From Clostridia bacterium (GTDB lineage Bacteria; Bacillota; Clostridia; Christensenellales; Borkfalkiaceae): a stretch of DNA of 64,000 bases. Within the stretch, counting starts at the first letter, position 1, and each line of letters starts with the position of its first letter. The translations under genes were made by a program, and so were the position numbers. This document shows positions 1 through 64,000 of this stretch, one piece after another. Location of the stretch: positions 31,623 through 95,622 of the forward strand of contig JAFQWV010000027.1 in NCBI GenBank assembly GCA_017407325.1. The letters run 5' to 3'. The notes beneath the pieces were generated by a model. The model searched no databases. It worked only from the letters and a program-made list of their open reading frames with translations, and was not told the origin of the DNA.

Positions 1-23
1 TTTGTCAATAGTTTTTATTATAA

Positions 24-115
24 TGCAAGCGCACGCTTGCAATTTATGAACGCCTGCGTTCAATTTATGACGGCGAAGTCGTCAATTTATGCAACGCAAG
101 TTGCAATTTATTTTT
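24..115 (+). repeat. word-plus-hairpin array (word AATTTATG/ATTTA, 4 hairpins) abutting the glnS stop codon
   Basis: TGCAAGCGcaCGCTTGCA ATTTA TGAACGCctGCGTTCA ATTTA TGACGGCgaaGTCGTCA ATTTA TGCAACgcaaGTTGCA ATTTATTTTTT. The four stems are all different and the linker is constant. Words start at 41, 62, 84 and 105. Confidence 0.85.
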
Positions 116-23550: not shown

Positions 23551-23585
23551 TAGTTTTATATAAAATGCTATTTCTTTCTCTATTA

Positions 23586-23752
23586 GTGAAGTTTTCGCTA
23601 GCGAAAATGAAGTTGTGCTATGCACAGTGAAGTTGCTCACTTTTCTCGCAGTGAAGTTAAGTTTGCCAATAACTTCGCCGTTAGGCGAAACTTCACTCAC
23701 AAAGTGAACTTCACTATCGAAGATAACTTCACTTGCCCAAAGGGCAAACTTA
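23586..23752. repeat. quasi-palindromic word-plus-hairpin array (GTGAAGTT x4, then AACTTCAC x3-4)
   Basis: Words are at 23586, 23607, 23627 and 23651 (forward) and at 23689, 23707 and 23725 (reverse complement). Different small hairpins lie between them: TTCGCtaGCGAA, GTGCtatGCAC, CGCCgttaGGCG, TCACaaaGTGA, TATCgaaGATA, TTGCCCaaaGGGCAA. Confidence 0.85.
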
Positions 23753-23809
23753 GTTTTAGCGTGAACACTCCGTTAAGAGTATTCACGCTAATTGCCGAGC
23801 GTTTTTTAA

Positions 23810-33971: not shown

Positions 33972-34110
33972 TGCAGAGTAGGATTACCGCGTTAAGTGTT
34001 GCAAAACGGGATGTTGTTTGCAAACGAAAGACGTTGTCTGCGATGGTTGTCCGCGTCCGTTGCAAATAAGCAATCAGGTTCTCTACTTTTGTAGAGAATT
34101 TTTTGCTTTT
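33972..34110 (+). ncRNA. THF (tetrahydrofolate) riboswitch with terminator expression platform
   Basis: GCAGAGUAGGAUUACCGCGUUAAGUGUUGCAAAACGGGAUGUUGUUUGCAAACGAAAG... matches the conserved AGAGUAG / CGCGUUAAGUGU / GGGAUGU / AACGAA blocks of the folT-motif aptamer as I remember them. It is followed by TTCTCTACttttGTAGAGAATTTTTTGCTTTTT, directly upstream of folT. Confidence 0.85.
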
Positions 34111-34137
34111 TACGGAACTCTATTAAGGAGTTTTATT

Positions 34138-34815
34138 ATGTTTAATTTACTTGCACCAAGCGCCTTTGATTTTAAGGCAATTTTTTCTAACGTTCTATCT
34201 GAATGGTACTATTATCTAACTTTTATTCTAATAGTGCTGACGGTAATTTTTCTTGTCGTTAAGTTCAAACCGCAAGAAAAAGTCGAACTTAAGAAAACGC
34301 ATAAACTATCAATAATTGCAATTCTTTCCGCGCTTTGCGTTATTGCAAATATTTTCTCATTTGGCTCGGATTTTGTAAAGTTTTCGTTTGTTAGCGTAGT
34401 GTGCTTTATCGCAGGTTTTACGCTTGGTCCAATCGGAGGACTTGCAGTTGGTTTTATTGGCGACTTTTTGGCGGGAATAATCTTTCCGTTTGGCGTATAT
34501 AACCCGATAATCGCGCTCGGTAGCGCTTTATTTGGTTTTATCCCCGGAATTATCTTCCACTATTTTAAAGGAAACAATATCATAAAAACGGTCGTTTCGT
34601 TTATAATTTGCTACGTCGTTTGTTCGGTTCTCTTAAACACTACCGCAACCTATTTTATGTACTTACACGGAAATTCGGCTAAGTATCAAACGGTATTTGC
34701 TTACCTCGTTGCAAGAATTCCGACGACTGCAATTACCCAAGGTATCAATCTTGTAATTTCAATCTTGCTACTTCCTGCACTTAATAAAATTAAAGAAACA
34801 CTTTTGAAAAAATAA
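34138..34815 (+). CDS. folT: folate-family ECF transporter S component
   Basis: About 225-aa membrane protein starting at ATG 34138 (AAGGAG SD), downstream of the THF riboswitch. The ORF-track start 34018 lies inside the aptamer. Confidence 0.8.
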   Translation: MFNLLAPSAFDFKAIFSNVLSEWYYYLTFILIVLTVIFLVVKFKPQEKVELKKTHKLSIIAILSALCVIANIFSFGSDFVKFSFVSVVCFIAGFTLGPIGGLAVGFIGDFLAGIIFPFGVYNPIIALGSALFGFIPGIIFHYFKGNNIIKTVVSFIICYVVCSVLLNTTATYFMYLHGNSAKYQTVFAYLVARIPTTAITQGINLVISILLLPALNKIKETLLKK

Positions 34816-36602: not shown

Positions 36603-36689
36603 ATGTTGTTATTAAGTATCGGTTTAGTTATAGGCGCAAACTTGGGTTTATTTTTCTTTGCACTGATAAATGCTTCTAAAAAAGATTAA
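36603..36689 (+). CDS. candidate 28-aa hydrophobic mini-protein
   Basis: AGGAGA SD sits 6 nt before the ATG. Peptide is MLLLSIGLVIGANLGLFFFALINASKKD. Its stop overlaps the convergent ABC exporter stop by 4 nt. Confidence 0.35.
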   Translation: MLLLSIGLVIGANLGLFFFALINASKKD

Positions 36690-38356
36690 TATCTTTTAAG
36701 CTCTACACATCTATCTTTAATAGTCATTTGAACGTTACAAATATCTTTTGCAACCATCTTGTGCGAAATAATAATTAGCGTCGTGTCATTTCCAAGCTTT
36801 TCTTTAATAGACTTTAAAACTTTAATTTCCGTTTCCTCGTCTAAAGCGCTAGTTGCTTCGTCAAGTAAAATAATCGGCTTTTTGCTAAGTAGCGCACGGC
36901 AGATTGCAACGCGCTGACCTTGACCTTCGCTAAGCCCTTGACCGTTTTCACCAATCACAGTATCAAGACCTTGTGGCAAACTATCTAAAAAGTCCATGCA
37001 ACTAATTTCGGCTGTCGCCACTATTTCTTCTTCTGTTGCGCTATCGTTTAAAAAGCAAACGTTTTCGCGAATAGTTCCTGAAAAAAGCATATTCCCTTGC
37101 GGAACGAAGGCAAACAAAGACCTATCCGACGACGTAATTTTTTTCTTAGAATTTTCTGTTTCAAAATATAATTCACCTTGATAATCGTCATATACGCCGA
37201 GTAATAGTTTAAATAGCGTACTTTTGCCAATTCCTGAAATACCTTTTATCAAACAGAAATCACCTTTTTTAATTTCGAAGCTAGCGTTATCTATCACCTT
37301 TTCGCGACCGTAAGAAAAGGTTAAATTTTTCGCGCTTATTGAACGAATATCAGAATAATTTATTCTGTCGTCTTCACTAGATTTTTGCTCGTCTTTAATG
37401 TCGATAACTTCCAAAATTCTTTCAGCCGACGACAGCATTTCATAGTAAACGGTAAAAATTTGAGTAAAGTTCATAAACGGCGCTTGCAGTTGATTTACAA
37501 GCTGAATCATAGCAGTAATCAAACCGAAAGTCACGCCACTACTACCGTTTAAAAGGTTTATAGCTCCCCAAACGACTGTTGCGATATAGAAAAACGAAAA
37601 AGCAAAACTTAACGCACTTGTGAGTAATGACGCTATATAGCGTTGTTTTTTAGCAGTTTTTAAATATTCGTCAAACTTTTTACTGCCGAGCGAAGAAACT
37701 TTATACTCCACCGAAAAAACTTTAACCGCCAAAAGATTTGACGTGTTTTCTGTTAGATAAGACACAACTTCGCTTTCTTTTTCGCGAGTTTTTCTGTGAA
37801 GCTTCTTAAATAGCTTTCTTACCAAAAAAGACGCGCCAACGATTACAAGTCCACCTAAAACTAAAAACAGCGTAAATATCGGTTGATAGTAAAGGAGCAC
37901 CCCGACAGCCAAAACGACTTTTACAATCATTGCAACAAACGCAGGAAGTATTTGCGAATATCCACGCGCAATTATCTGCGAATCCGTCGTAATTCTGCCG
38001 ACCAAATCCCCCGTTTTATACTCTGAAATTTTAGCATAATCTTTGTTTAAAAGCTTAGAAAAAACTTCTTTTTTAAGATTCACTTCGCAAGTTAATCTGC
38101 ACTTTTCAATCATAATTTTATCAAGCACAGAAAATAAAAATGCAAAAATTAATAAAATTATCGAAACACCAGCTCGGAATAAAACAGTTTTAAGCTCGCT
38201 ACTATCGCTTAGCGCAGAGTTGATTAAGTCTTTCGTAGACAACGCAAAAAAGACCATAAGCGCCGATTGAACCCCGCTTACAAGCACCGTTAAAAGATAT
38301 ATGAATTTTGTTTTTTCAGTACTCTTTTTTATAAATTGCGTTGCTTTACTTTTCAT
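36686..38356 (-). CDS. ABC exporter, fused permease/ATPase (MsbA-like type)
   Basis: 556 aa. Six N-terminal TM helices, Walker A GISGIGKST, signature LSEGQGQR, Walker B ILLDEATSALD. Confidence 0.9.
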   Translation of the reverse strand: MKSKATQFIKKSTEKTKFIYLLTVLVSGVQSALMVFFALSTKDLINSALSDSSELKTVLFRAGVSIILLIFAFLFSVLDKIMIEKCRLTCEVNLKKEVFSKLLNKDYAKISEYKTGDLVGRITTDSQIIARGYSQILPAFVAMIVKVVLAVGVLLYYQPIFTLFLVLGGLVIVGASFLVRKLFKKLHRKTREKESEVVSYLTENTSNLLAVKVFSVEYKVSSLGSKKFDEYLKTAKKQRYIASLLTSALSFAFSFFYIATVVWGAINLLNGSSGVTFGLITAMIQLVNQLQAPFMNFTQIFTVYYEMLSSAERILEVIDIKDEQKSSEDDRINYSDIRSISAKNLTFSYGREKVIDNASFEIKKGDFCLIKGISGIGKSTLFKLLLGVYDDYQGELYFETENSKKKITSSDRSLFAFVPQGNMLFSGTIRENVCFLNDSATEEEIVATAEISCMDFLDSLPQGLDTVIGENGQGLSEGQGQRVAICRALLSKKPIILLDEATSALDEETEIKVLKSIKEKLGNDTTLIIISHKMVAKDICNVQMTIKDRCVELKRY

Positions 38357-40303: not shown

Positions 40304-41368
40304 TTAACTATTTAAGTTAGCCATTTCATACCAACGTTCTGCATGGTGAACAGCTAGCCCAAAGCTTTCGTCTACCATACTTTTTAAAAGCGCCATTTCG
40401 CTAAGCATTACGCTTTCGCCTTCTTCCCAAAAAGAAACGTTGTCACCTTCTGTTGAATAAGTCTCAATACCCATAAAAACCGACTTATTGACCGACTTTG
40501 CATAATTTATCTCTTCGCTTGATACGCTGTAAATTCCGTCTGCGGTATCGCGATAACTCATTAAAAATACTCTGTCGCAAATATCAATCATTGCTTCATA
40601 AGCAAGTCTTTTTTCGCCGTTATAAGTTATCTCATAATCAAGCCAGAACGGTAAATCAAAAGAAAATTCGATATCAGGAAAATCCGTTTTAACTTTTATT
40701 GCAACGTCAATTAGTTCTTGTATAAGAGTTACCCTTACAGGACTTTCTTTATCCGTACCCTTCCAAGACGGATTTTGGTGTGGTTCAATATCTAAATGAA
40801 CACCCGAAAATTGAGAATTTGGAAATTCTTGTTGATACGCTAAATATTTATTAAGTTTAGTATACAAATTTGTGCTATCTTGCGCCCAGCCGTATTCTCC
40901 ACCAAGCCAATACACGCGAATATTCTTTTCTTTTGCTTTTTGAATAAAAGATGCGGTATTAACGGAAAATTCACTCGAACAGTAATAAATTTCATTGACA
41001 CCACGCGTTGCTACAAAATCTAAATATTCGTCGCCTAAACTCTTTTTCCACCACCAAACTCCTAAAACGCGCTCCTTTTTTTCATTTTCAGAATTATCAA
41101 TAGAAATTTCAATACTTTCCGATAGTGACAAACTATTTAAACTTTCCGATAGTGACAAACTATTTAAACTTTCCGATAGTGACAAACTATTTAAACTTTC
41201 CGGATTTTTAGATGAATTAGTCGAGTTAATCGACTTATACAGCGATTTTTGGCTTAAACTTACACTTTCACTTATTGAATTTTTTAAGTTATTCTTACTT
41301 TCATTTTTTCCACACGCTACCAATAATGCTAACGCTAAAATAAGCATAATAATAAATATTTTTTTCAT
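40304..41368 (-). CDS. lipoprotein with Ser/Leu repeats and a TIM-barrel glycosidase-like domain
   Basis: Lipobox LLVAC. SLNSLSLSE is repeated 3 times. The C-terminal about 260 aa (VLGVWWW..., GVHLDIEPH) look like an uncharacterised GH-like domain. Confidence 0.7.
   Translation of the reverse strand: MKKIFIIMLILALALLVACGKNESKNNLKNSISESVSLSQKSLYKSINSTNSSKNPESLNSLSLSESLNSLSLSESLNSLSLSESIEISIDNSENEKKERVLGVWWWKKSLGDEYLDFVATRGVNEIYYCSSEFSVNTASFIQKAKEKNIRVYWLGGEYGWAQDSTNLYTKLNKYLAYQQEFPNSQFSGVHLDIEPHQNPSWKGTDKESPVRVTLIQELIDVAIKVKTDFPDIEFSFDLPFWLDYEITYNGEKRLAYEAMIDICDRVFLMSYRDTADGIYSVSSEEINYAKSVNKSVFMGIETYSTEGDNVSFWEEGESVMLSEMALLKSMVDESFGLAVHHAERWYEMANLNS
41114..41204 (-). repeat. 27-nt in-frame tandem repeat, about 3.3 copies
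   Basis: ACTTTCCGATAGTGACAAACTATTTAA is reiterated at 41114, 41141 and 41168, with a partial copy at 41195. Confidence 0.9.
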
Positions 41369-43436: not shown

Positions 43437-43578
43437 CTTACACGAAATCATACACGATATCTTACACGATTAGATGTTGCTTTGCAACTCGATATGCAAC
43501 CTTGCGGTTGCTCGATATGCAAAACTGTCGTTTCGCTCGATATGTGCCTACGGCACTCGATAGCAAGTTTTTAACTTG
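43437..43578 (-). repeat. 12-nt direct repeats (..TACACGA x3), then a word-plus-hairpin array with word CATATCGAG (reverse orientation)
   Basis: The plus strand shows CTCGATATG/TCGATAG words at 43489, 43511, 43536 and 43556. They separate GTTGCtttGCAAC, CAACCttgcGGTTG, CAAAACtgtcGTTTCG, GTGCCtacGGCAC and CAAGTTtttAACTTG. Confidence 0.85.
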
Positions 43579-43702
43579 CATTGTGGTCGTGAACGCTATC
43601 GCGTTCCGTAATTAACATATAATTTTTTTCTAAGGATTTTAATTATTATATAATTTCACACCTCATCCGTCGCTTCGCGACACCTTCCCCTCAAGGGGAA
43701 GG
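43578..43702. repeat. mosaic repeat modules shared with 61116-61353
   Basis: CATTGTGGTCGTGAACGCTAnCnCGTTCCGT..TAACATATA recurs at 61280-61323. ATTATTATATAA recurs at about 61341. ACACCTCATCCGTCGC..CGCGACACCTTCCCCTCAAGGGGAAGG recurs inverted at 61116-61160. Confidence 0.85.
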
Positions 43703-43724
43703 CTTGTTTTAAATTTTGTTGAAT

Positions 43725-44070: not shown

Positions 44071-44099
44071 TGCGGTCATCCAAGTCAAACACTTTTTTT
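44042..44099. terminator. long bidirectional terminator-like hairpin downstream of kdgK
   Basis: AAAAAAAGTGTTTG...ATTGGAT...ATCCAA...CAAACACTTTTTTT. Confidence 0.7.
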
Positions 44100-44136
44100 A
44101 GAAACGCCGTATTGCGACGCTTATAAGGTTTTTAAA

Positions 44137-58500: not shown

Positions 58501-60419
58501 CAAGGGTTATAAGTATCTTCAAGCCTATGACTCTCGTCGTTTGCAAACTGAGTTAACGCCCACTCAACTGCTCTTAAAAATTTGTCGTCACCAGAAAACT
58601 CGTAAGCATCGAATAAAACGCGGGTAGTTTGCAAGAAGTCAAGTCTTACGATATTGTTGAACTGGCTAGCACTTTCTGGATTAGGCGTGTCACTTGAATT
58701 GCTATATTGAACGATAGTACCGTCTTCACGGATATATCTTTCGAGATAATCAACCACGAATTGTTGATACTTATCTATCGTTTCTCCTTGAGTGTCTTCG
58801 TTTAAGTTATAAGAAAGGTTTACGAGCGAATTTAAGAAAATGCCGTTTACGTAGTTAAAGTAACCACGCCATTTTTCATCTTCACCAACCCACGAGCCTT
58901 GCACCATATTTTTCCATGCTTCGCCGTTAACCTTACTGTTATCCGTGGTTGTGTCTACGTGCCCTTCGATATAATCAAGAATCGCATCTTGATCAACTTC
59001 GTTAAACCAAAGTGCGTATAAAGTTATATCCTCACTTACCTTATCCAAGTCAAAATCAAACTCGTCTCTATAAGTCGATTTATCCGTAGTTTTATACCAA
59101 CCCATAAAGGTATAACCTGTTCTTTCTGGGTTCTCAGGTCTATCGACCATACCGTCGTCGCTTGCGACTTCCATCGTCTCTTTACCGTTAGACATTGTAC
59201 CGTCTTGCGCGTTAAACGTAATGGTATAATTATTCGCATTCCATTGCGCAACAAACGTTACGTCACTTGCTGGCATAGTAAACGTTCCGCCAGGCTGATA
59301 CGTATTATTACCGTATTTCCAGCCCGTAAACGTATATTTAGATCTTGTCGGAATAACGCTACTAATATTTATTTTATCGCCCGATTCGTACTGATTATTA
59401 TCACTCGGTGCACCGCTACCGCCGTTTGCATCATACGTCACCGTAAAATCAGTCTTTTCCGTCCAATTAGCAGTAAGTACTACATTGGCAGTTCCCATTG
59501 TAAACTGTCCGTTTGAAATTATGACACCACCACTTGTAACAGTCCAACCATCAAACAAGTAATTATCTTTAGTCGGATTAGAAGTTATAACGTCAGAAAT
59601 CTTTACCGTAGCACCTTCAGCAAAACTTCCACCGCTTACGTTACTAGTACTACCATTAAACTTACCACCGTTTAAATTATAAGTTACGGTATAAGTAGCC
59701 GCCGGCGTTTCACCTGCTGGAGTCATATCCGTAATACGTAAAGCACTAACTTTTACTTTTTTATTACTTCCAACCAATTCAACAGTATCAAATACTAAAG
59801 TACTAGTGCCAGCTGCAGCAGTTGTAAATTCAACATAACCAACTCTACCAGTACTTGAAGTGTGTTTGTAGTAATTCATAAAATCGGTAGGCGTGCTACC
59901 ACTAGCAAACGCAGTTGCATGTTTTGTAATATTCTTAGTTGAAGGAGTTTCAGAATTGAAAGAATACGAATAAGTAGGGCTCGATGTTAAATCAGCTGAA
60001 CCAGCGATTAACATTTCAACTTTTGCTGGATATAACAAGTTGAATTCAACAGTAATATCATCACTATGACCATTACTTTGCGTCAAAAGATTTTTGGATG
60101 TTCCACTAGCACCGTTAATAGAAACAGATTCAGCATCGCCTATTTTCCAATTTTGATTAGGTGATATAAAAGTAACATAATTAGCAGAACCAGTTGGCTG
60201 AACCGTTCCCAAAGTGTAACTCGTGCCAGATTTTGTAAGATATACAGTTTTAGCCCCAGTTATAGTAGCACTACTCAAATGCAAGTCAAATGTTTTATCG
60301 CCATTAGCAGCGCTTGCGGTGTATTTTGTGTCGAAGGTTGAAATGCCCACGCCAAAAGACACTACCATTAAAAACGATAGCGCAACGATTGCCAAACTTC
60401 TAAATTTCTTCTTAAACAT
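46578..60419 (-). CDS. giant secreted multidomain protein: Listeria-Bacteroides (InlB B-type) repeats, GH88/GH105-like domain, multiple beta-sandwich modules
   Basis: Uninterrupted 4613-codon ORF. AAAGGAG SD before the ATG. Signal peptide MFKKKFRSLAIVALSFLMVVSF. About 25 copies of the ..Y.V.Y..NGG ... Y.F.GW ... LYA.W repeat. No LPXTG or other anchor at the C-terminus. Confidence 0.9.
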   Translation of the reverse strand: MFKKKFRSLAIVALSFLMVVSFGVGISTFDTKYTASAANGDKTFDLHLSSATITGAKTVYLTKSGTSYTLGTVQPTGSANYVTFISPNQNWKIGDAESVSINGASGTSKNLLTQSNGHSDDITVEFNLLYPAKVEMLIAGSADLTSSPTYSYSFNSETPSTKNITKHATAFASGSTPTDFMNYYKHTSSTGRVGYVEFTTAAAGTSTLVFDTVELVGSNKKVKVSALRITDMTPAGETPAATYTVTYNLNGGKFNGSTSNVSGGSFAEGATVKISDVITSNPTKDNYLFDGWTVTSGGVIISNGQFTMGTANVVLTANWTEKTDFTVTYDANGGSGAPSDNNQYESGDKINISSVIPTRSKYTFTGWKYGNNTYQPGGTFTMPASDVTFVAQWNANNYTITFNAQDGTMSNGKETMEVASDDGMVDRPENPERTGYTFMGWYKTTDKSTYRDEFDFDLDKVSEDITLYALWFNEVDQDAILDYIEGHVDTTTDNSKVNGEAWKNMVQGSWVGEDEKWRGYFNYVNGIFLNSLVNLSYNLNEDTQGETIDKYQQFVVDYLERYIREDGTIVQYSNSSDTPNPESASQFNNIVRLDFLQTTRVLFDAYEFSGDDKFLRAVEWALTQFANDESHRLEDTYNPWHTPDEVNEVWLDGLYMYAPLYARYLAAGGKAQLGTTDFRYTVQGLIDQYAVVVNNMRDSDTGLYYHGYSADGAAPWANEDGVSSAFWSRGTGWLAMSLVDVLDYLPDETINEITFKNTTYTSSRAYLTAVFKDLMDSILAHQDPDSKMFYHVLNQGTIKNTDNYLETSGSAMFAYALMKGGKAGYLSGTYTTTAGGDPLSYNDIGRQVFEGIYAHSVSVSGSDINVYDICGATSLSDANSGLASTYVNKSAVANGSKGTAPFILAFIEYFNETVNKPTTPNVNERQIPLDANGGTLSGDEYIAAVVGNVYTGTLPTPTRDNYDFTGWYIDAQLTTQFVLNSTIITSDMVLYAGWELEDSVEAYTFTLDANGGSFAGGSETLSGIKVAIANPELLSSHIPSREHYDFAGFASSENATSADLFDANGDLIEDAELSNGTIYAVWTATEYTITIDFSAIVQDLTGSRNNYYNITYDFNGNTGINITAKLNSVINANFVDGFNAPTNVARTNYTFIAWIDQDGVEYAENAEIHPTKDMTLKPVFQIAPGSISSRVSASDSTVTWNSYTMDSDGKYVTTNADIYQNVRWTDLYADYLSDGYYTIIDNTGVTVKFDSSKCITDSTHRAITEPFIRIAANSKDFATIVIKEGYTAKVTVYGTTVTNSKNWTVSINGSTGDIIASSAFYTETNLFKEFTPGSYTTSSLSAGTYTISNGNASNNGFITGIKVELSKAPTFTVSFEENGGTSVSNVSNIAVGGKVSEPTAPTKTDYTFGGWYLDSNLTKAYDFNTVVTNDTTLYAKWNATGETPDTYTVTYNANGGANAPTDSTQYSSGDTVTISSTVPTRTNYIFAGWTSSAFSGTKQAGETFTMPENNVTLTASWTATYSVTYVDGVDGEEISMPSNSNRFKEGVTFTISGANPSRLGYTFAGWESSAFDGVKQANASFTMPASDVTLTATWNPITYNIAFNKNNEDATGEMSPIVATYGQATALTQNGFTLEGYTFKGWATSANGDVVYLNGESVENLANTQDATVTLYAVWEKKIDIPTEIENFIIYKNGEQLTVPNSQGIEVTFHGLSNMAEERTDIVFGSGDLQTGTVIKTGGSSKSTRYISFKVPSSVYSSFKVKVVGTPSSNGQINIWVSKTIGSSMGNGETAIITPSVSNTYLTGTSGSFDTADENGDDITYYLNFSSGARFYEISLELTTEINTDVERTISFVTDDNDARPFDGAIADQKVENGGSLDLTAIVPTTSSKGYVFSHWVDSLGNVYTDSIDNVLRDMTLYAKWYTVVDSADTPESTRGKVPLADAKVYGLYLPSTTTIRLANGSTASWTVDWDYVNATYATELDGNYTAKNISNYANIDVAGFYKVTGTISVPSGYLYEIGEVETSTITVESIVEVYVIGAQVMAGAGYMSDGRTAWNSGLTLTNDRYTLSENGEVSIVVDADNIGEITSDGIINLTGATFSNSSYKNDAPIKIDLPNEYSMLLIVIKVTNATKDNVSLWTEDGIQVPLSQTVGATYTNLSISTTDDYGNILYLFSSGNNTALHSIVVNAQYEDENINDENIEDSTNKLYYHTVINDNNSYGEAIEEPYNYLNQAKVIVKPQTEHLDLPDHYLFSRWATATSGTASYYNPGDVLTVTSETNNLYVIMEEEPKITITFDVNAPAGMTSDQISQVFGSFALEYKIYSGDSLDSMPDFSEVRFTVNGYEYTFDGWSPSITQDTTFNEDTTVTANWYTATLPVIVKDLEKTVQEGTTESEIINSLPTEFVVCDINGNETSDYDYAVIVGSWTSVAYNANVAGTYIFRATLDTAPSGTVWYSSWAGVEIDSQAYDRSQDGTYYVYCKVTVVEAEDYATYSAEFTAFAYTGSGDHVLYNNNSNTHDKAWSDYYQVATDEATIPGTIVARNGEVKIIADDETVVDEDDGITAALVDTDYHGQTWSMIKGYHQTSLNAPFIYVVVPKGYASVKISVYAVRFRASGNDVTLEVGPLNSGKDKMLVTDHSYTETDNETDFNYFYEFSPSYHIYEYSGDETVFTVRNTHRSTNIYLTGIKVECTMVEDESHIITYHANDGTDNALTREVVYAENGSGDDAIVEKNFFEREGYEFIGWSRTKGSDSIEQNYQVGKSLELDGNITLYAVWQRARALTYYANDGSTDSFTKYYTNGRGPLSENEFDMTAETREDKVFLSWNTQSNGQGDTYYPGDIFNPNASDNRLVGVIPEGTVLYAQWGSGKTLTAKWDAYSSELQAIDTVYTDCSQTLGNDWTTKYNGKIIAKNGDVLTIDASGATAGSNAMSKPMLSLAKGNTISVNVSGITTESALSIRVSAVVASGSSKFTINGTEYSVSRTFDDGSTFTPFVADIAVYATTVSEASTINITTTGNSAIYIVGISASVSNDQFVGNTLTYNNNIEGAEETYDYLVSGSTIVDINHFHRDGYTFAGWATTEGGAVAYTYGQELTVSEDITLYAKWTPITYNYEFISNEATHDGGTFNLVDGITKPSEDPTLNGYIFMGWYLDDGVFQNQATFDGENKFYPSFEMIDGDTIYLYAYFIEDIHTKEIVTPNELQDLEKYIVDVMENVYREEGSTSGTAIVSASALELPANVMVTGDGFGKNLAIDWSLAVSGWTLSSLQSGTQTLTGYIKLDDSDYGSFAFSDGVNENLQQIGVTLDLTLRNIIIQFTDNEPLVEKNFIYPIGTTKSAVISAFEVRGYYIDRSGVSKDWIPDSLVWTCDNFNKDIGNEYVFTTTLYADIGYAFITTNNEDETIESNTYQASAHVTIQDSKNANAGVGFERKDSSDWTQGVAGDLVIDSNGDVGNQLVLTGLSNSYANENGYLTLDAGENALKISIPNGVERVEVKFVGGVRTSNNSSTLSVVDASGNSLATSSDLAVYTNAELATLSINTNGLTELFVKSVGDETIISKLLINAYPVKTTSDNIVKVKFVYAGVEKYLSTDGSGTYANATPFVKSAKIELPTFAESGLNNAPAAQNIEFIGWSIDQSAQVASYQAGGLYDIDLYSDVIVEGNEEKVSTLYAVFNVGYYTLTFDSGFGNTVEYKIPKNKQVNEVITIRGVGREQALKDLELSRVGYNFVDWYYSNGEIFSSNIMLNDHVVVTADWTPKTYTINYKNGNELITTDMVSYTELFDAPVLAENPSYINTTRTFRTWTYNGADWNFGQASLESSGIITDNDIYEIDLQADFGAKVTFKTEYAEVVGSAYPVVQDSNVYPIGYRYALTDKFTNLMGYTFVGWSLVQNSPTAEYTTESVITLTENITLFAVWRANEYKITFESGNANIDFATLEVEGKTLENNSGMFTFNTELPTITATANGYVIHSWYYIDSQGFERTWVFDGDNPNKVMALEPDDETFTLYARWGITVNFEKFSVIANDDEFNQNADLYDSVIVPVGDAIPFVHTQGTASLGSALHVRPQIPGYSFVGWYTDNEGAQEFDINQAFTIDFINSLKANSTDTAVTIYAGFEKVTGNVVITFVDTFDTGATMPVSVQHANSTYFTVTAEYILPDNTVAEFEGWSLYPDGSGEIYGLDDEVFIEGDTVLYAFWTISITDIEIDTPTVRSDETIQVQIPYALDGINGEKVFESVFEIKWKLAEATNADDPSDETIYDLTMGAHNVAAGRYSVPVELVLESGYVWNGSNLELLDNGHYATTIEIIVLNSAVPYYIVKIYSIEDTTALNSDYRLDKVKAEISTNSTADSGTEITLAVTWNSQIDTTIWGTHYVLGSVHAGSYELKVGVSQTVSATIEVTKNGEENAYLYKTYQDGTMPNAPDAPSGFEFLCWTDKGVTAVGQNGTAPAGEWTAMYTKLSFTEGGSIRLNKDYTGIRFTAHLEFYGTNYVAELMKNKSNLSGAVSVTMNFNYEKDGTTYNVGTGQDFMNMTQSVEAGNAIITFSGVISDLVVYDNDGNFVNNDNCDIEFTPIAKVKLNGAEADSLTAGFSVSASHVASAVIGNYAEGTYQHSVLLDYTK
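57690..58982 (-). other. GH88/GH105-like (unsaturated glucuronyl/rhamnogalacturonyl hydrolase) domain within the giant protein (about aa 480-910)
   Basis: VWLDGLYMYAPLYA, SAFWSRGTGWLAMSLVD and NYLETSGSAMFAYALMKG match the (alpha/alpha)6 GH88/GH105 family motifs (YteR/UGL-like) as I remember them. Confidence 0.7.
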
Positions 60420-60528
60420 ATATGTACTCCTTTTCGGAAAAAGCCTTTTTTTGTTCTACTTTCCCCGACAACGGATTATTCCCGTATTTTACGCGCAAAA
60501 GCACGCGATAAATATTATAATATATAAT

Positions 60529-60557
60529 ATATTAACAAAACGCGACAAAATTGTCAA
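60529..60557 (-). promoter_or_regulatory. sigma-A-type promoter of the giant gene
   Basis: Minus strand reads TTGACA (60552-60557), 17-nt spacer, TAATAT (60529-60534); about 100-nt leader. Confidence 0.65.
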
Positions 60558-60632
60558 TAATATTATAAAAACTTGTAGCAGGTTGCAAGAAATTTTCCAC
60601 TTCATATAAAGCACATTGCACAAGAAAACAAA

Positions 60633-60727
60633 ATAAATTGCAAAATAAATTTTGCATAAATTGACGGCGTTTGCCGTCATAAATTGACCGCTAACTGCGT
60701 TCATAAATTGCAACCCAAGTTGCATTA
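60633..60727 (-). repeat. word-plus-hairpin array, word CAATTTAT (reverse orientation, 4 units)
   Basis: The plus strand reads ATAAATTG GCAAAATaaATTTTGC ATAAATTG GACGGCgtttGCCGTC ATAAATTG GACCGCtaactGCGTTC ATAAATTG GCAACccaaGTTGC. As written, the terminal G of each word and the first G of the next hairpin are the same base. Confidence 0.85.
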
Positions 60728-60765
60728 TGGTTATTTTTTCATTGCGAGCGTTACTTCTATTTATT

Positions 60766-60948
60766 CCTACCCCGTCATTGCGAGCGCGATTTATCGCGCG
60801 TGGCAATCTCTAAAGAACTAACCGAGCACTTTTAACGCCGAACACTAAAACAACCCACACGCACTTTATAGATTCTTACGCTTTCGCTCAGAATGACACT
60901 AATGAGTGTTGTAAAATAATTAGACGGCGTTTAAAAAAAACGCACGAC
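60766..60948 (+). repeat. 184-bp structured/MITE-like element, copy 1
   Basis: Starts CCTACCCCGTCATTGCGAGCGCGATTTATCGCGCGTGGCAATCTCTAAAG and ends AGACGGCGTTTAAAAAAAACGCACGAC. Contains internal long-range inverted repeats. Confidence 0.85.
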
Positions 60949-60954
60949 AATAAT

Positions 60955-61078
60955 GCAAATCGTGATTTGCAATTTATGAAAGTTTTAACTTTCAATTTAT
61001 GCGCCTAAAGCGCAATTTATGAACTTTGCAAAAGTTCAATTTATCGCAGTTTTTGCGAATAAAATTCGCAAAAACTGC
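60955..61078 (+). repeat. word-plus-hairpin array, word AATTTATG(A) (5 hairpins)
   Basis: GCAAATCgtGATTTGC, GAAAGTTttAACTTTC, GCGCctaaaGCGC, GAACTTTgcaAAAGTTC and a 15-bp stem GCAGTTTTTGCGAATaaaATTCGCAAAAACTGC. Words are at 60971, 60994, 61014 and 61038. Confidence 0.88.
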
Positions 61079-61169
61079 CCTATAACGCGATTATTGCACC
61101 ATTTTTTCCCCCTAGCCTTTCCCTTGAGGGGAAGGTGTCGCCCCGCGACGGATGAGGTGTAAGATTGTT

Positions 61170-61310
61170 AATGATGTGCAAAATAAATTTTGCATGATGC
61201 GCTAACTTGTCAGTTAGCATGAAGCGCAATCCTACTTTTTGCGCACGGATTACATGATGTGTAAGTATGCAAGCAACTTACATTGTGGTCGTGAACGCTA
61301 GCACGTTCCG
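61170..61310 (+). repeat. word-plus-hairpin array, word CATGATG/CATGAAG
   Basis: TGCAAAATaaATTTTGCA (same hairpin as at 60639-60656), GCTAACttgtcaGTTAGC, GCGCAA..TTGCGC, TGTAAGT..ACTTACA and GAACGctagcaCGTTC. Confidence 0.8.
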
Positions 61311-61390
61311 TGAATAACATATATTTTAATTTCGGACTGAAATTATTATATAAATCGTTTTTTGTCATTGCAGCGCGATTTTTATTTACT

Positions 61391-61574
61391 CCTACCCCGT
61401 CATTGCGAGCGCGATTTATCGCGCGTGGCAATCTCTAAAGAACTAACCGAGCACTTTTAACACCCGAACACTAAAATAACCCACAACGCACTTTAGAGAT
61501 TCTTACGCTTTCGCTCAGAATGACAATATTCAGTATTATAAAATAATTAGACGGCGTTTAAAAAAACGCACGAC
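61391..61574 (+). repeat. 184-bp structured/MITE-like element, copy 2
   Basis: Near-identical to 60766-60948 and 61707-61890. Confidence 0.88.
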
Positions 61575-61580
61575 CACAAT

Positions 61581-61672
61581 GCAAATCTGAGATTTGCAAA
61601 TCATGAAAGCCTGCTTTCAAATCACGAACGGCTTGCCGTTCAAATCATGAAGGCTCAGCCTTCAAATCATCC
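61581..61672 (+). repeat. word-plus-hairpin array, word AAATCATGA (4 units)
   Basis: GCAAATCtgaGATTTGC, GAAAGCctGCTTTC, GAACGGCttGCCGTTC and GAAGGCtcaGCCTTC. Words are at 61598, 61619, 61642 and 61664. Confidence 0.88.
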
Positions 61673-61706
61673 TCTAAGGCAACATATCGAGCGCGATTTT
61701 TTTACT

Positions 61707-61890
61707 CCTACCCCGTCATTGCGAGCGCGATTTATCGCGCGTGGCAATCTCTAAAGAACTAACCGCGCACTTTTAACACCCGAACGTAAAAACAACCCAC
61801 AACGCACTTTAGAGATTCTTACGCTACCGCTCAGAATGACAGTATTCAGTATTATAAAATAATTAGACGGCGTTTAAAAAAACGCACGAC
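61707..61890 (+). repeat. 184-bp structured/MITE-like element, copy 3
   Basis: Near-identical to copies 1 and 2. The word CATATCGAG is present both before it (61683-61691) and after it. Confidence 0.88.
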
Positions 61891-61896
61891 CTTTAT

Positions 61897-62004
61897 GAAA
61901 GTTAAAAACTTGCTATCGAGCAACCGTTAGGTTGCATATCGAGTTGCTCCAGCAACATATCGAGCGCGAACAAAGTTCGCGCATATCGAGTAGCCTTTAA
62001 GCTG
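61897..62004 (+). repeat. word-plus-hairpin array, word CATATCGAG (4-5 units)
   Basis: AAGTTaaaAACTT, CAACCgttaGGTTG, TTGCtccaGCAA, CGCGAACaaaGTTCGCG and TAGCctttaaGCTG. Words are at 61912, 61935, 61956 and 61982. Confidence 0.88.
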
Positions 62005-62080
62005 CCCAATACTGCCGTACGGTTACTAGCGTCAAAAATTGCCAAATTTCAGGCGATTTTATGCTTTTTGGTCGAGTATT

Positions 62081-62124
62081 CAAAAAAGGCGCGAATTTGC
62101 CAAATAACGGCAAATTCGCGCCTT
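62081..62124 (-). terminator. second terminator-like hairpin downstream of the mini-ORF
   Basis: 16-bp stem AAGGCGCGAATTTGCC / GGCAAATTCGCGCCTT, followed by a T-run on the minus strand. Confidence 0.6.
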
Positions 62125-62139
62125 AAAATCAATATTTAT

Positions 62140-62187
62140 TAAAAACATAAAAATTAAAAGCCTTGCGAAATACTTCGCAAGGCTTTA
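62140..62187 (-). terminator. intrinsic terminator after the mini-ORF
   Basis: AAAGCCTTGCGAAatacTTCGCAAGGCTTT, followed on the minus strand by TTTAATTTTTATGTTTTT. Confidence 0.85.
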
Positions 62188-62201
62188 AGATTGTTTTTTA
62201 A

Positions 62202-62330
62202 TTACCAAACGATACCGATATCGTCTGCGTCAACGTCGTTGTCAGCACCTAATTGACTTGCAGTTACAACGTCTTCTGTAAAGAAGGTAATTTCAAATTG
62301 TAATTCTTCATAATTTTTCATAATTTTCAT
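62202..62330 (-). CDS. candidate 42-aa highly acidic mini-protein
   Basis: AGGAGGT SD is directly upstream of ATG 62330, 9 nt after the stop of the upstream repeat-protein gene. Peptide is MKIMKNYEELQFEITFFTEDVVTASQLGADNDVDADDIGIVW. A terminator follows. Confidence 0.5.
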   Translation of the reverse strand: MKIMKNYEELQFEITFFTEDVVTASQLGADNDVDADDIGIVW

Positions 62331-62339
62331 ACCTCCTAA

Positions 62340-64000
62340 TTAACCATTTAATACTACGCCGTAAATTTCGGCTTGAGCATCAGTAAGTTGACCAGCATCA
62401 TAAAGCTTTTGCGCTTTACTTACGATTGTATCACTTTCAATTGCATCACTTTCAGCGATAATTGATACGCCGTTGATTGTAATCGTCATATCAACGTTTA
62501 ATGCGTTTTGTGCTTTTGCTGAATCAATACCAGTTATTGAAAGGTTTGCAAGATATCCACTTTGATTTTCGTTATAAGCAATATTAAGAACATCAACGTT
62601 TACGTTTGCACTAGAACCATTTGTAAGGTTAGCAACGTTAAACACAGCACTTGCATTTAAAGTTAAACCATTTAAAGCGTTTTCGTTTGCATCAACGATA
62701 GTTACAACGTAACCAAATCTAACTGCTGGACTTTCAGCACTCTTTCTAAAACTAATACCTAAATATTCAGCCTTAGCAAATGCATTTACATCACCAAACT
62801 TGCCAATATAAGTATAACCAAAATCTGAAATTTGAATTTCTTTAATATAAGTACTTGATTGCGAACCGTCAACTTCAAATCTGTAAACGCCATTTTCAGT
62901 TGTAACATATTCAAAATCTTTAAATGCACCTGCCGTTGTCGTAACCGTTGAAAGTGCAGTAGTACTATTATTATTATAGAAGGAAGATGCTACTTCTCTA
63001 CCCGAGTATATTGTAACAACAATTTTAGTGTTAGCTTCAGCAAAGAATTCAATATATGCACCATCTTTACCTTTTATCATACTATAAGATACATTATCAA
63101 TAGTTTGTGCTTCAACACCCCAATTGTTTGAACTGTTAGTTCCTAATGTATATCCCGCTTCTTGAGCATCATCAGCCGTTGTATAATTGTTAAAATCATA
63201 AGAAACAGCAGGTGTTAATAATGAGATATTAGCAGTTACTGTTGCGTTTGATACATCGTAACCAGTCTTCGCTTTTAAAGTACCAATAACAACGCCGTCA
63301 GCATATTCACCCCAAACAACTTCAAATTGAACCTCATCAATTGTTACAATTGCAGGTAAAGCGTCGTATATACCGTCTTGAGTAGCAGTAATATTAAGTG
63401 AAGTACTTGCAACAGCAATTTCTTTTACGATAACTTGCATTGTAGGAGCGGCTGCAGTTACGTCGTAGACGTTAGCGTCTACTGTTACGTTACCAGTTAA
63501 AGTATAGTTTTGAAGTTTGGTTGCGTCGTAATCTTTATCCCATTTCCAAGTTACAGGCAAAGAATATTCGCCAGAAGTAACTACGGTAGGAAGTTCGATT
63601 TCGTCTATTGCAGTTCCAAAATCAATTTCTACGTTAGAAACAGCGTCATATTCAGTGATTGAAGGCTTAACGAAGTTAGCGTCAAGTTCCCAAACTGCTT
63701 TAAAGGTTGTGTCAGAATTGATTGGAACTGTTGTAATATCAATTACAGTTGAACCGTCAGTTGACCAACCTAAGAAATTGTAACCAGTCTTAGTAGGTGC
63801 TGTAGGGGCAGACGTTAAAGTTTTACCTTCTTCAACAGTTACAGCTGCAACTTCGCTACCACCGTCAGTATCAAATGATACGGTGTAGTTAGTTACCAAC
63901 GGAGTGATTTCAACATCATAGATAAAAAACTTTCTGGCAGTTCCTGAATTACCACACATCAATGCCGCGTTAGCTGTAAAAACAGTGGTTCCTTTATCTA
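62340..64000 (-). CDS. Listeria-Bacteroides repeat / Ig-like / beta-sandwich module protein, N-terminus beyond the window edge
   Basis: The reading frame stays open to position 64000, upstream of the TTG/ATG given in the ORF track. Contains YTVSFDTDGG...YNFLGWS...FKAVW, a module ending STYIKEIQIS, and a C-terminal ISFR...AVRF domain like the giant protein's C-terminus. Confidence 0.85.
   Translation of the reverse strand, partial: DKGTTVFTANAALMCGNSGTARKFFIYDVEITPLVTNYTVSFDTDGGSEVAAVTVEEGKTLTSAPTAPTKTGYNFLGWSTDGSTVIDITTVPINSDTTFKAVWELDANFVKPSITEYDAVSNVEIDFGTAIDEIELPTVVTSGEYSLPVTWKWDKDYDATKLQNYTLTGNVTVDANVYDVTAAAPTMQVIVKEIAVASTSLNITATQDGIYDALPAIVTIDEVQFEVVWGEYADGVVIGTLKAKTGYDVSNATVTANISLLTPAVSYDFNNYTTADDAQEAGYTLGTNSSNNWGVEAQTIDNVSYSMIKGKDGAYIEFFAEANTKIVVTIYSGREVASSFYNNNSTTALSTVTTTAGAFKDFEYVTTENGVYRFEVDGSQSSTYIKEIQISDFGYTYIGKFGDVNAFAKAEYLGISFRKSAESPAVRFGYVVTIVDANENALNGLTLNASAVFNVANLTNGSSANVNVDVLNIAYNENQSGYLANLSITGIDSAKAQNALNVDMTITINGVSIIAESDAIESDTIVSKAQKLYDAGQLTDAQAEIYGVVLNG

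Follow-up and report, generated by a model that had tools for sequence, protein, structure and literature searches.

Hairpin arrays with constant linkers in a Christensenellaceae genome as probable divergent copies of the Gut-1 repeat

In the noncoding region at 60632-62004 of the window, i.e., of the whole 64,000-nt stretch of contig JAFQWV010000027.1 that was analysed, short hairpins are joined to one another by a constant word, which raises the question of whether such arrays exceed chance and what kind of element they belong to. We re-read the region and found all five arrays described in the initial annotation, with the perfect 15-bp stem at 61046-61078 also present. The words lie at the following positions:

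CATAAATTG: 60632, 60655, 60678, 60702
CAATTTATG/C: 60970, 60993, 61013, 61037
[AC]ATGA[TA]G[TC]G: 61170, 61193, 61218, 61253
CAAATCA[TC][GC]: 61597, 61618, 61641, 61663
CATATCGAG: 61935, 61956, 61982, with a lone copy at 61683
GCTATCGAG: 61912, in the same array as the CATATCGAG copies at 61935-61982

An array was scored when a 7-mer occurred at least three times at a spacing of 17-32 nt, and first-order Markov resamples of the window, with dinucleotide frequencies preserved on average, served as the null. The window contains ~12 word arrays, compared with a mean of 0.24 (maximum 2) per resample. Anchored perfect stems of at least 4 bp were found in 12 of the 16 inter-word segments, where 0.95 were expected and the maximum in 1000 shuffles was 5. 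The shuffle control proposed with the initial annotation thus yields no comparable arrays, and those of the window are far beyond chance. Three further arrays were found outside the five, at 15-112, 23585-23755, and 43476-43591; they comprise four more copies of CAATTTATG at 40-112, an inverted word pair AGTGAAGTT / AACTTCACT at 23585-23755, and three copies of CTCGATATG plus CTCGATAG at 43488-43563.

The element behind the arrays is small, varies between strains, and has two inverted arms, of which each array represents one, with a defined polarity. Such an arm starts with a head, CACGACnnnnATG, continues with 4-5 short hairpins separated by 5-nt linkers, and finishes with a truncated tail word. 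The stems are mostly 6-8 bp and the loops 3-4 nt, and nearly all hairpins have TG at the start and CA at the end. Since the stems reach into the words (TG...CA) and take 2 bp of the word at each side, the truly unpaired linker is 5 nt, and the 9-nt word consists of CA, the constant 5-nt linker, and TG. The word spacing is irregular, at 20-26 bp. Arms occur solo, in tandem, or as inverted pairs, in which a core lies between two oppositely oriented arms. Left-arm words mostly match those of the right arm, as in 60632-61078, 23585-23755, and the compared sequences L001, L085, L090, L102, L306, L316, and L400, and are mismatched in the element at 61170-61671. The features of the window are as follows:

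15..112, plus strand: solo arm; head TTATTATAATG (15-25), four hairpins, CAATTTATG at 40, 61, and 83, tail CAATTTATT (104-112)
23585..23755, no strand: inverted arm pair without core; homologous copies in L101 and L052
23585-23658: left arm of this pair; words [AG]GTGAAGTT / AATGAAGTT
23689-23733: right arm of this pair; words AACTTCACT, degenerate tail AACTTAGTT at 23747
43476..43591, minus strand: arm; CTCGATATG three times and CTCGATAG as read on the plus strand (CATATCGAG on the minus strand), inner head CATTGTGGTCGTG (43579-43591) at its end
43592..43705, no strand: core-type module after the head; hairpin AACGCTATCGCGTT, AT-rich TATAAT-like stretch, module CACCTCATCCG...CCTTCCCCTCAAGGGGAAGG
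60632..60730, minus strand: left arm of element 1; [AC]ATAAATTG at 60632, 60655, 60678, and 60702 (plus strand), degenerate head CATTATGG (60723-60730)
60747..60950, no strand: separate ~200-nt repeat, copy 1, nested in the core of element 1; contains GTCATTGCGAGCGCGATTTATCGCGCGTGGCAATCTC, terminates in TTAGACGGCGTTTAAAAAAA
60943..61078, plus strand: right arm of element 1; head CACGACAATAATG, words CAATTTATG (three times) and CAATTTATC, final 15-bp hairpin 61046-61078
61100..61145, no strand: the GGGGAAGG / GATGAGGTG module in inverted copy, immediately external to the left arm of element 2
61170..61293, minus strand: left arm of element 2 (A-type); words AATGATGTG, CATGATGCG, CAAGAAGCG-type CATGAAGCG, and CATGATGTG, hairpins including CTAACTTGTCAGTTAG, inner head CATTGTGGTCGTG (61281-61293)
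61294..61568, no strand: core of element 2; its parts are hairpin AACGCTAGCACGTT, a second, AT-rich hairpin whose loop is TATAAT-like, and copy 2 of the ~200-nt repeat, nested
61372-61577: ~200-nt repeat, copy 2, nested in the core of element 2; bracketed by TATTATATAAAT / TATTATAAAATAAT
61569..61671, plus strand: element 2, B-type right arm; four hairpins after head CACGACCACAATG, words CAAATCATG / CAAATCACG / CAAATCATG, tail CAAATCATC
61688-61893, no strand: ~200-nt repeat, copy 3; preceded by the lone word CATATCGAG (61683-61691)
61885..62004, plus strand: arm; head CACGACCTTTATG, words GCTATCGAG and CATATCGAG (three times), last hairpin TAGCCTTTAAGCTG

The solo arm at 15-112 has the stop codon of glnS (minus strand, 108) on one side and, on the other, the -35 box of the promoter that follows on the same strand, and the pair at 23585-23755 folds with a z-score of -4.9 on both strands. 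The arms at 43476-43591 and 61885-62004 have hairpin units in common, in a different order; in strain L008, a perfect palindrome TAGCTTTTAAGCTA takes the place of the last hairpin of the latter arm. The module at 43592-43705 is ~90% identical to copies in L064, L052, and L070, and its GGGGAAGG module recurs as the inverted copy at 61100-61145. In element 1, the left arm is ~92% identical to a solo arm of L085 (7395-7476), and the hairpins of the right arm include GCAAATC..GATTTGC and AAAGT..ACTTT. The hairpins of the A-type arm at 61170-61293 recur in the same order, with different words, in L001, L070, L052, L064, and L085. The ~200-nt repeat is missing from an otherwise similar core at L085 5380-5485, and at L085 5585-5620 the word CATATCGAG runs straight into an array without the intervening repeat.

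The initial annotation described stems that vary freely while pairing is retained. Nearly all stems do differ from one another, except that the hairpin TGCAAAATAAATTTTGCA is common to two arrays (60639 and 61177), but their sequences are not free: the hairpins are position-specific and conserved between paralogous copies, and the loops are variable. The retention of pairing is borne out. Double-sided, compensatory changes affect 5/26 pairs in the B arms, eight homologous copies of which make up alignment A1, and 13/26 pairs in the A arms, with few broken pairs; examples are CAATCC..GGATTG to TAAGCC..GGCTTA and AGCGAC..GTCGCT to AAAGAC..GTCTTT. Hairpin variants recombine between copies, with the units exchanged like cassettes at the constant words, and the words within one array change in concert. 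Instead of being specific to one array, as first described, the words belong, as variants, to a single family (CAnnTCATG, CATATCG.G), at least five of them different in one genome. The word CAAATCATG is used in unrelated genomes of 42-62% GC with entirely different hairpins, which points to a conserved reader of the linker.

This architecture had initially been assigned to no known repeat class, yet the same layout is found in the Gut-1 RNA motif (Rfam RF01706; Weinberg et al. 2010, Genome Biol 11:R31, PMC2864571). Judging from the sequences, the arrays are very probably divergent, homologous copies of this dispersed repeat of gut Clostridia, catalogued in 2010. The Gut-1 consensus, CAaUGAAAU-hairpin-GUGAAAU-hairpin-GUGAAAU-hairpin-GUGAAAU with variable covarying stems, has the architecture of the window arms; Gut-1 comprises at least three consecutive, differing, covarying hairpins, and each window arm has 4-5, with the compensatory pairs given above. 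The inner head TTGCGGTCGTGAA is common to the Gut-1 seed flanks and the window; the seed flanks run on into GUUGCGGUCGUGAAG, and the window inner head reads CATTGTGGTCGTGAACG (43579, 61281). The flank after the last hairpin is also shared, its block TTG.GGTCGTGAA not varying across alignment A3, in which two of the Gut-1 seeds are represented. Furthermore, an inverted second arm is visible in the Gut-1 seed BAAZ01000095 and in L400, and the sister strain L001 carries the exact Gut-1 word (CATGAAATG / CGTGAAATG).

Compared with the Gut-1 linker consensus, (A/G)UGAAAU, the window words on the Rfam strand (CATGATTTG, CATGATGYG, CATAAATTG, and CTCGATATG) are 1-3 nt off; GUGAUAU of some seeds equals ATATCAC, near the window word CATATCGAG, and AGTGAAGTT is a further window word unlike that of Gut-1. 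With the Rfam model, whose gathering threshold is 50 bits, L400 26-108 scored 52.3 bits, and the GC-rich CAAATCATG arrays of L383 and L332 scored 36.3 and 35.1 bits, respectively. The model gave no window match at the threshold, none at E up to 10 in 60300-62400 or 43440-43640, and none in the L001, L053, L070, L064, or SGB_375 copies. In the excerpts of PMC2864571 consulted, Gut-1 derives from human-gut metagenome sequences with no sequenced organism, and mention of an inverted second arm, a core, multi-copy dispersal, strain polymorphism, or loop polarity was not found in their Gut-1 text; as far as these excerpts go, the inverted arm pairing and the loop polarity are seemingly additions to the 2010 description.

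The element is multi-copy in the Christensenellaceae MAG JAZSKA01, with 80-91% identity among the copies in the window and eight contig slices, and the copies, which are not the same in every strain, lie dispersed between housekeeping genes. The solo arm at 15-112 is identical in sequence in strains L002-L006; in L001, whose locus is otherwise identical, a full two-arm element stands in its place. With respect to the genes around them, solo arms are found in both orientations. The copy number, the L001 replacement, and the two orientations all speak for a mosaic element, and we tentatively read the arrays as the arms of a non-autonomous, dispersed, REP/BIME-like mosaic of gut Clostridia (here Christensenellaceae) that would act as a folded single strand, in which we place a little less than even confidence. 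The arm module would work in the folded state, more likely as DNA than as RNA, with the hairpins serving only by their structure, as spacers that leave the short constant linker accessible. The linker would be read in trans by a factor specific for single strands, as enzymes of the RAYT and IS200/IS605 types read a motif beside a hairpin. Spread, gain and loss of units, and homogenisation of words may come from that factor or, alternatively, from replication that stalls at hairpins and switches template at the words. The position-specific hairpins kept by compensatory changes, the cassette exchange, the use of CAAATCATG across unrelated genomes, and the loop polarity and loop types described below were also counted for the mosaic element, as was the lack of a transposase or Nop/Tas gene among the ORFs annotated.

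Several observations count against it. No clean pair of insertion and empty site was seen, the sole strain difference (L001) being a replacement and not a simple insertion; no candidate enzyme was found in the genome fragments inspected; and the ends of IS200/IS605 lie on one strand, whereas the two arms of this element favour opposite DNA strands. There was no consistent target-site duplication at the ends of six full copies, and no autonomous partner element was found. On the side of the mosaic element, Pfam scans revealed no transposase or Nop/Tas gene in 30 ORFs of the window (a set without 36686..38356, the giant ORF and the two past it, and some small ones), nor did the precomputed annotations of eight more ORFs at the orthologous locus of L001; all of these belong to chromosomal, non-mobile gene families or have no Pfam match. 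A RAYT (Y1 HUH) gene was likewise absent from the Pfam-annotated window ORFs. A phage or plasmid origin was rejected, two viral-contig scans giving chance matches only, without arrays. When strains were compared across 60400-62200, 7/7 metagenome contigs stopped at or just before the repeats. A gene for a four-helix bundle (23S-IVS type, by eye from the translation) adjoins arrays in L400 and L402, in opposite gene orientations; the two cases may be related.

The loops bear on whether the folded strand is RNA or DNA. Among 99 distinct hairpins, 41 loops are of the form G..A vs one of the form T..C, and this polarity follows the word orientation and is present in both arms of inverted pairs. 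The defined polarity initially proposed from three G-T pairs is therefore real and rests on a much stronger signal. The favoured (GNA) strand is the opposite of the one modelled for Gut-1 in Rfam. There are 44 triloops (44%; 23 GNA, 33 closed by C-G) and 11 GNNA tetraloops, only five of which are GNRA. GNA triloops closed by C-G are typical of stable DNA mini-hairpins, for instance d(GCGAAGC), and not of stable RNA hairpins. The loop sequences thus indirectly suggest a better fit to DNA mini-hairpins than to RNA; a C-GNA-G could also open as a 5-nt RNA loop. With these loops, and with the arms of one element favouring opposite DNA strands, the RNA-level structure of the initial annotation is not established. 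Of its interpretation, compensatory pairing and polarity stand, and free stem variation, array-specific words, the lack of a known class, and the RNA level are not supported.

In the main rival explanation, Gut-1 is an expressed, structured small RNA, either a multivalent sponge or scaffold with 4-5 identical single-stranded sites, set apart by insulating hairpins, or a stabiliser of mRNA 3' ends, and the copies are paralogous sRNA genes or UTR elements. We regard this as possible but rather doubtful. The covariation and the strand polarity of the hairpins speak for it, as do one C(UUCG)G loop and some GNRA loops, and the excerpts of Weinberg et al. (PMC2864571) rate Gut-1 as certainly RNA, from covariation, and list it as an sRNA, which also counts against single-stranded DNA. 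Solo arms directly after a stop codon (window 15-112, L332 after rplQ, L356, and L402) would be transcribed by read-through, but these cases and the Rfam model give the RNA strand with UNC or U-rich loops, not the favoured GNA strand. Triloops at 44%, with GNYA as common as GNRA, are unusual for selected RNA hairpins, and the arms lie in both orientations relative to genes. Room for transcription is left by AT-rich, TATAAT-like core sequences and by promoter-like hexamers in the core, including ATGACA-16-AATAAT directed into the B arm in three copies, which are not independent evidence because they are duplicates of one another; a -35/-10 pair at a consistent distance from the head is not conserved. 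The arm as a small transcription unit, with the head as -10 box and the tail plus T-run as terminator, was rejected for its misfitting spacing and the absence of a conserved -35: a -10-like head would place the transcription start inside hairpin 1, and the T-run lies 7-8 nt from the last stem and therefore forms no canonical terminator. We also considered a rod of four-way junctions built by long-range pairing between the words of the two arms. This pairing is used in MFE folds, yet it is not obligatory because solo arms, tandem arms (L007 150-405), and the mismatched element at 61170-61671 exist; degenerate words without compensation in the opposite arm were observed in L001.

Alternatively, the words might be duplex DNA sites, either subterminal sites of a DDE transposase, as at the ends of Tn7, Mu, and IS21, or sites of a nucleoid or regulatory protein in inverted arms of ~100 bp, with palindromic spacers that are incidental or aid cruciform extrusion. 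Inverted arms with 4-5 sites each do resemble multi-site transposon ends, the arm words usually match, a spacing of 20-26 bp approximates two helical turns, and some arms abut strong TTGACA-17-TATAAT promoters. This nevertheless seems unlikely to us: it leaves the compensatory changes in the spacers and the one-strand loop polarity unexplained, would need several specificities for at least five words in one genome, and is at odds with the irregular spacing and with the lack of a transposase gene (ORFs scanned) and of visible target-site duplications. Inspection of the words as restriction, Chi, DnaA, or Fur-type sites gave no consistent match. Even less probable, in our estimate, is that the constant word is a rewritable address, in which single-strand-specific recombination or transposition machinery would read the exposed linker and the words of an array would be re-specified together; it would account for conserved, ordered hairpins with different words, for words shared by arms, and for cassette-like units.

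Stem-loop TIGR arrays, which are processed to guide RNAs for a Tas (Nop-domain) protein, show a formal resemblance: their stems are variable and consistently palindromic with few conserved nucleotides at the base (UG...CCA; Faure et al. 2025, PMC12045711; Xu et al. 2026 preprint, bioRxiv 10.64898/2026.09.09.750476), so that 2-3 nt at the stem base are conserved in both (TG...CA in the arrays). However, a TIGR unit has two variable 8-12-nt spacers and box C/D motifs inside the loop (PMC12045711), whereas the arrays have a constant 5-nt linker between stems and loops of 3-4 nt. TIGR arrays lie next to a tas gene; here, no Nop/Tas gene was present among the Pfam-annotated ORFs (30 in the window plus the L001 annotations), and the copies are dispersed over the chromosome instead of clustering around an effector gene. 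With two defining features contradicted, the spacers and (in the ORFs scanned) the tas gene, this identity was rejected as extremely improbable. A literature search by word sequence and hairpin-array architecture returned only the TIGR papers as relevant, the rest being primers and unrelated matches; the TAACTGA heptamer repeats (PMC4679880) are plain tandem heptamers and unrelated.

For the mosaic element, the nearest analogues by structure would be REP/BIME clusters and modular MITEs. REP/BIME of Enterobacteria and Pseudomonas are likewise short extragenic palindromes in mosaics with other motifs, and the arrays are dispersed, extragenic, multi-copy palindromes in mosaics too; the location of REP/BIME after genes or terminators, their hundreds of strain-polymorphic copies, and the reading of a short single-stranded motif beside the hairpin by the RAYT enzyme, on single-stranded DNA, were counted as further likenesses. 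RAYTs are rare in Firmicutes. In REP, the palindrome is conserved, carries a 5' GTAG, and alternates in orientation between neighbours, whereas the stems of the arrays differ between units, the linker is constant, and the units are direct within an arm. Pneumococcal BOX (boxA-boxB(n)-boxC), Correia of Neisseria, and RUP are also non-coding, dispersed, and foldable, with nested insertions, inverted terminal parts, and modules of variable internal unit number; unlike the arrays, they have modules of conserved sequence, none joins mutually unrelated hairpins by a short constant linker, and several have target-site duplications and a known parent IS, neither of which was found here. Of the MITE features, the arrays have the inverted arms, without a consistent target-site duplication in the six full copies or an autonomous partner among the sequences found. 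The attC sites are recognised as folded single-stranded DNA by structure over sequence, with short conserved core sites, but they are 55-140 nt long, their core sites are inverted, they lie on either side of gene cassettes, and IntI is required. CRISPR shares the regular alternation of constant and variable segments, but has constant, often palindromic 25-36-nt repeats, variable non-palindromic spacers, and cas genes, whereas the arrays have a constant segment of 9 nt and a palindromic variable segment, with no cas genes in the scanned ORFs; the comparison of the arrays to an inverse of CRISPR holds as a formal analogy and nothing more.

Since 2010, Rfam has listed Gut-1 among the small RNAs, as an orphan. 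The arrays place Gut-1-type sequences in an identifiable lineage, a Christensenellaceae MAG, in addition to GC-rich contigs, and indicate that the element, dispersed and variable between strains, probably has two inverted arms of which the catalogued motif covers just one, and that the family, with its several word variants, extends beyond what the Rfam model detects. In practice, metagenome contigs of these strains break off where such a repeat is reached or slightly short of it. Should the arrays act as RNA, they would present several copies of one single-stranded site, a multivalent display of natural origin. If the words are rewritable addresses, they would represent a new kind of structure-plus-address mobile DNA system, and Gut-1 would not be an sRNA. 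If single-stranded DNA is the acting form, Gut-1 would have to move from the sRNAs to the REP-like elements, with good reason to look for its enzyme.

The initial annotation had described five arrays of hairpins joined by constant words in the island upstream of the giant gene, and our reading of 60000-64000 found all five in place, with the word positions checked by pattern search. The window as a whole holds ~12 arrays (a 7-mer occurring at least three times at a spacing of 17-32 nt) versus a mean of 0.24 in first-order Markov resamples, which keep the window's dinucleotide frequencies on average. Of the 16 segments between words, 12 fold into a perfect anchored stem of 4 bp or longer, whereas 0.95 are expected and none of 1000 shuffles gave more than 5. 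Arrays and stems thus far exceed resampled or shuffled sequence and show that the words and hairpins of the window are not chance. The arrays are real, non-random and structurally constrained. TG...CA closes 72 of 99 distinct hairpins and the stems reach 2 bp into the words, so the unpaired linker is 5 nt.

The island words are found again at distant window sites (40-112 and 43488-43563), and all arrays share one polarity once they are oriented with the words ending in ATG. In this orientation, an arm runs from the head CACGACnnnnATG, or a degenerate form of it, through four or five hairpins to a tail word that is cut short (CAAATCATC or CAAATCATT, for example), and two inverted arms around a core make up an element:

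40-112, word CAATTTATG, four copies
23585-23755, inverted pair AGTGAAGTT / AACTTCACT
43488-43563, word CTCGATATG
60632-61078, complete element (inverted arm, core, arm)
61170-61671, complete element (inverted arm, core, arm)
61683-62004, third element, partial
60747-60950, 61372-61577 and 61688-61893, three copies of a ~200-nt repeat, 87-94% identical

The ~200-nt repeat is unrelated to the arrays and nested in the element cores. It contains GTCATTGCGAGCG and the stem-loop GTCATTGCGAGCGCGATTTATCGCGCGTGGCAATCTC, its second copy (61372-61577) is bracketed by TATTATATAAAT and TATTATAAAATAAT, and it resembles a small mobile repeat in its own right. Its right end bears a promoter-like ATGACA-16-AATAAT directed into the next arm. 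Another module, CACCTCATCCGTCG...CGACACCTTCCCCTCAAGGGGAAGG with a GGGGAAGG/CCTTCCCC hairpin, has inverted copies at 43660-43705 and 61100-61145 and further copies in three contig slices of the Christensenellaceae MAG JAZSKA01 (L064 28-80, L070 2664-2720 and L085 5227-5275); it accompanies the hairpin-array elements at varying relative positions. Further intergenic repeats at 43720-44135 (GCGTCAG.C.ACACGACTGGCAGGTCGCCTGCCTAAAAACCTTAGAA and CTTAGAAGCGAGCAAGACAAGGCACAAAAAAAGTGTTTGGATTGGATAGACC, each twice) have no Rfam match and have related copies in L070 and in L090, another slice of this MAG.

The inner head CATTGNGGTCGTGAACGC matches one species representative, JAZSKA01, many times; the remaining genome matches are chance and lack arrays. 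Full copies on its slices L085 (two), L090, L102, L053 and L101 share 80-91% identity with the window elements, and their hairpins are position-specific with variable loops:

A arms: AAAAAAC.., CAATCC.., CTAAC.., CAAGC..
B arms: GCAAATC.., AAAGT.., AGCGAC.., AAGATG.. or AAGGC..

The hairpin variants occur in reticulate combinations; therefore, units have been swapped between copies at the words. Compensatory changes (RNAalifold) affect 5 of 26 pairs in the B arms and 13 of 26 in the A arms. Identical hairpins in identical order carry different flanking words in different copies: CTAACTTGTCAGTTAG is flanked by CATGATTTG, CATGAAATG, CATGATGTG or CATGATGCG, and GATTTG-CAATTTATG-AAAG in one copy is GATTTG-CAAATCATG-AAAG in another, which indicates that words evolve in concert within an array.

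Against Rfam, the window arrays and the Christensenellaceae copies matched nothing but unrelated families, all weakly and below threshold. GC-rich relatives on metagenome contigs, however, match the Gut-1 RNA motif (RF01706), with 52.3 bits for L400 26-108 (threshold 50), 36.3 for L383 and 35.1 for L332. The architecture had been taken as undescribed, but the Gut-1 consensus has it: three variable hairpins with GUGAAAU between them. In the published Gut-1 seeds (PMC2864571, supplement file 95), the sequence after the arrays is GUUGCGGUCGUGAAG, which is also the inner head seen in the window, and TTG.GGTCGTGAA is invariant in our alignment that includes two of these seeds. At least one seed has an inverted second arm, as does L400. 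The seeds also have a GUGAUAU word variant close to CATATCGAG of the window on the other strand, and arrays of the related strain L001 carry the exact Gut-1 word. The window arrays are divergent Gut-1 family members missed by the Rfam model and no new class.

Most of what a metagenome scan with three hairpin-spaced CAAATCATG words returned was plain tandem repeats, and eight loci carry genuine arrays; with L316 and L392 being one locus, these amount to seven distinct arrays (L306, L316/L392, L332, L356, L383, L400 and L402; GC 42% to 62%). The word is constant across them and the hairpins are unrelated, tracking host GC content; tail-to-tail arms also occur. The array tail adjoins a putative four-helix-bundle (23S-rRNA-IVS type) gene, assigned by eye from translation, in L400 (1048-1416) and L402 (899-1267), in opposite orientations, which may be coincidence. 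The GlnRS gene of the window is present on human-gut-type metagenome contigs.

The site downstream of glnS has the same solo arm in the window and five strains, whereas L001 has a full element with two arms there, built on other words. All seven contigs reaching the island from the right stop at or just before the repeats. The surrounding genes are chromosomal by Pfam for 30 window ORFs and by precomputed annotations of eight more in the orthologous L001 locus, and include aminoacyl-tRNA synthetases, gyrA/B, two sporulation-type sigma factors, spoIIGA and an Fe-hydrogenase; no transposase or Nop/Tas protein is among these ORFs. The scanned set excludes the giant ORF, the pair of ORFs past it, 36686..38356 and some small ORFs. 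Viral sequence scans gave nothing real. Other features of the window are as follows:

33972-34064 (+), THF riboswitch (RF01831, 75.9 bits), the sole gathering-level Rfam match in the window, upstream of an ECF-transporter S-component gene (34018..34815)
39286-39735 and 39763-40209, two tandem paralogous double-HTH (HTH_3 + HTH_26) genes near the 43476 arm
41114-41200, perfect 27-nt tandem repeat, 3-4 copies, within ORF 40304..41368 (354 aa, no Pfam match); a coding repeat unrelated to the arrays
42397-43383, Fic-domain gene near the 43476 arm
46578-60419, minus strand, giant ORF (4613 aa) with a signal peptide and many Listeria-Bacteroides type repeats, flanked by inverted arms (43476-43591 and 61885-62004), both with word CATATCGAG
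62077-62198, two strong terminator hairpins back-to-back, after a 42-aa ORF (62202..62330); they cause spurious sub-threshold RsaF and L20 leader matches

In the strain contig L007, arrays lie on both sides of an HTH/HipA pair, and the gene family neighbouring the giant ORF has PF09479 (Flg_new).

The loops of the 99 distinct hairpins were counted on the strand with words ending in ATG. G..A loops number 41 versus a single T..C loop. Triloops (44 of 99; GAA 11, GCA 8, GTA 3, GGA 1) are closed by C-G in 33 cases, and the 39 tetraloops include 11 GNNA, five of them GNRA, and no TNNC. The bias is present in both arms of inverted pairs and is therefore intrinsic to the module instead of a replication-strand effect. 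C-GNA-G and C-GNNA-G are classic, very stable DNA mini-hairpins, such as GCGAAGC, whereas selected RNA hairpins prefer GNRA and UNCG tetraloops. Since the loops fit the DNA preferences better than those of RNA, we lean towards arms acting as single-stranded DNA.

Anatomy, dispersal, polymorphism, covariation, polarity and the homology to Gut-1 are established, and the mechanism is inferred. The arrays may, tentatively, be a REP/BIME-like non-autonomous element whose arms act as folded single strands, probably of DNA. The hairpins would present the short constant linker for a trans-acting factor to read, and both the exchange of units and the homogenisation of the words would follow from recombination or template switching there. 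Four points count against this reading: no enzyme for such an element was found among the annotated ORFs, no target-site duplication was seen at the ends of element copies, the two arms favour opposite DNA strands, and the loop types speak for DNA only indirectly. It is rather unlikely that the arrays are instead an expressed Gut-1 sRNA or UTR element; PMC2864571 reports Gut-1 from human-gut sequences and, because of covariation, lists it as an sRNA, but the Rfam model strand has UUC/UGC/UUU loops, the complement of the strand favoured here. Arrays of binding sites in duplex DNA seem improbable. The stems of TIGR stem-loop arrays are likewise palindromic, variable and conserved at the base, but the arrays here differ in their spacers and have no tas gene among the annotated ORFs, making an identity as TIGR-like guides barely credible.

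To the Gut-1 family, the present analysis adds a two-arm mosaic anatomy, an organism assignment, word variants, concerted word change and loop polarity.
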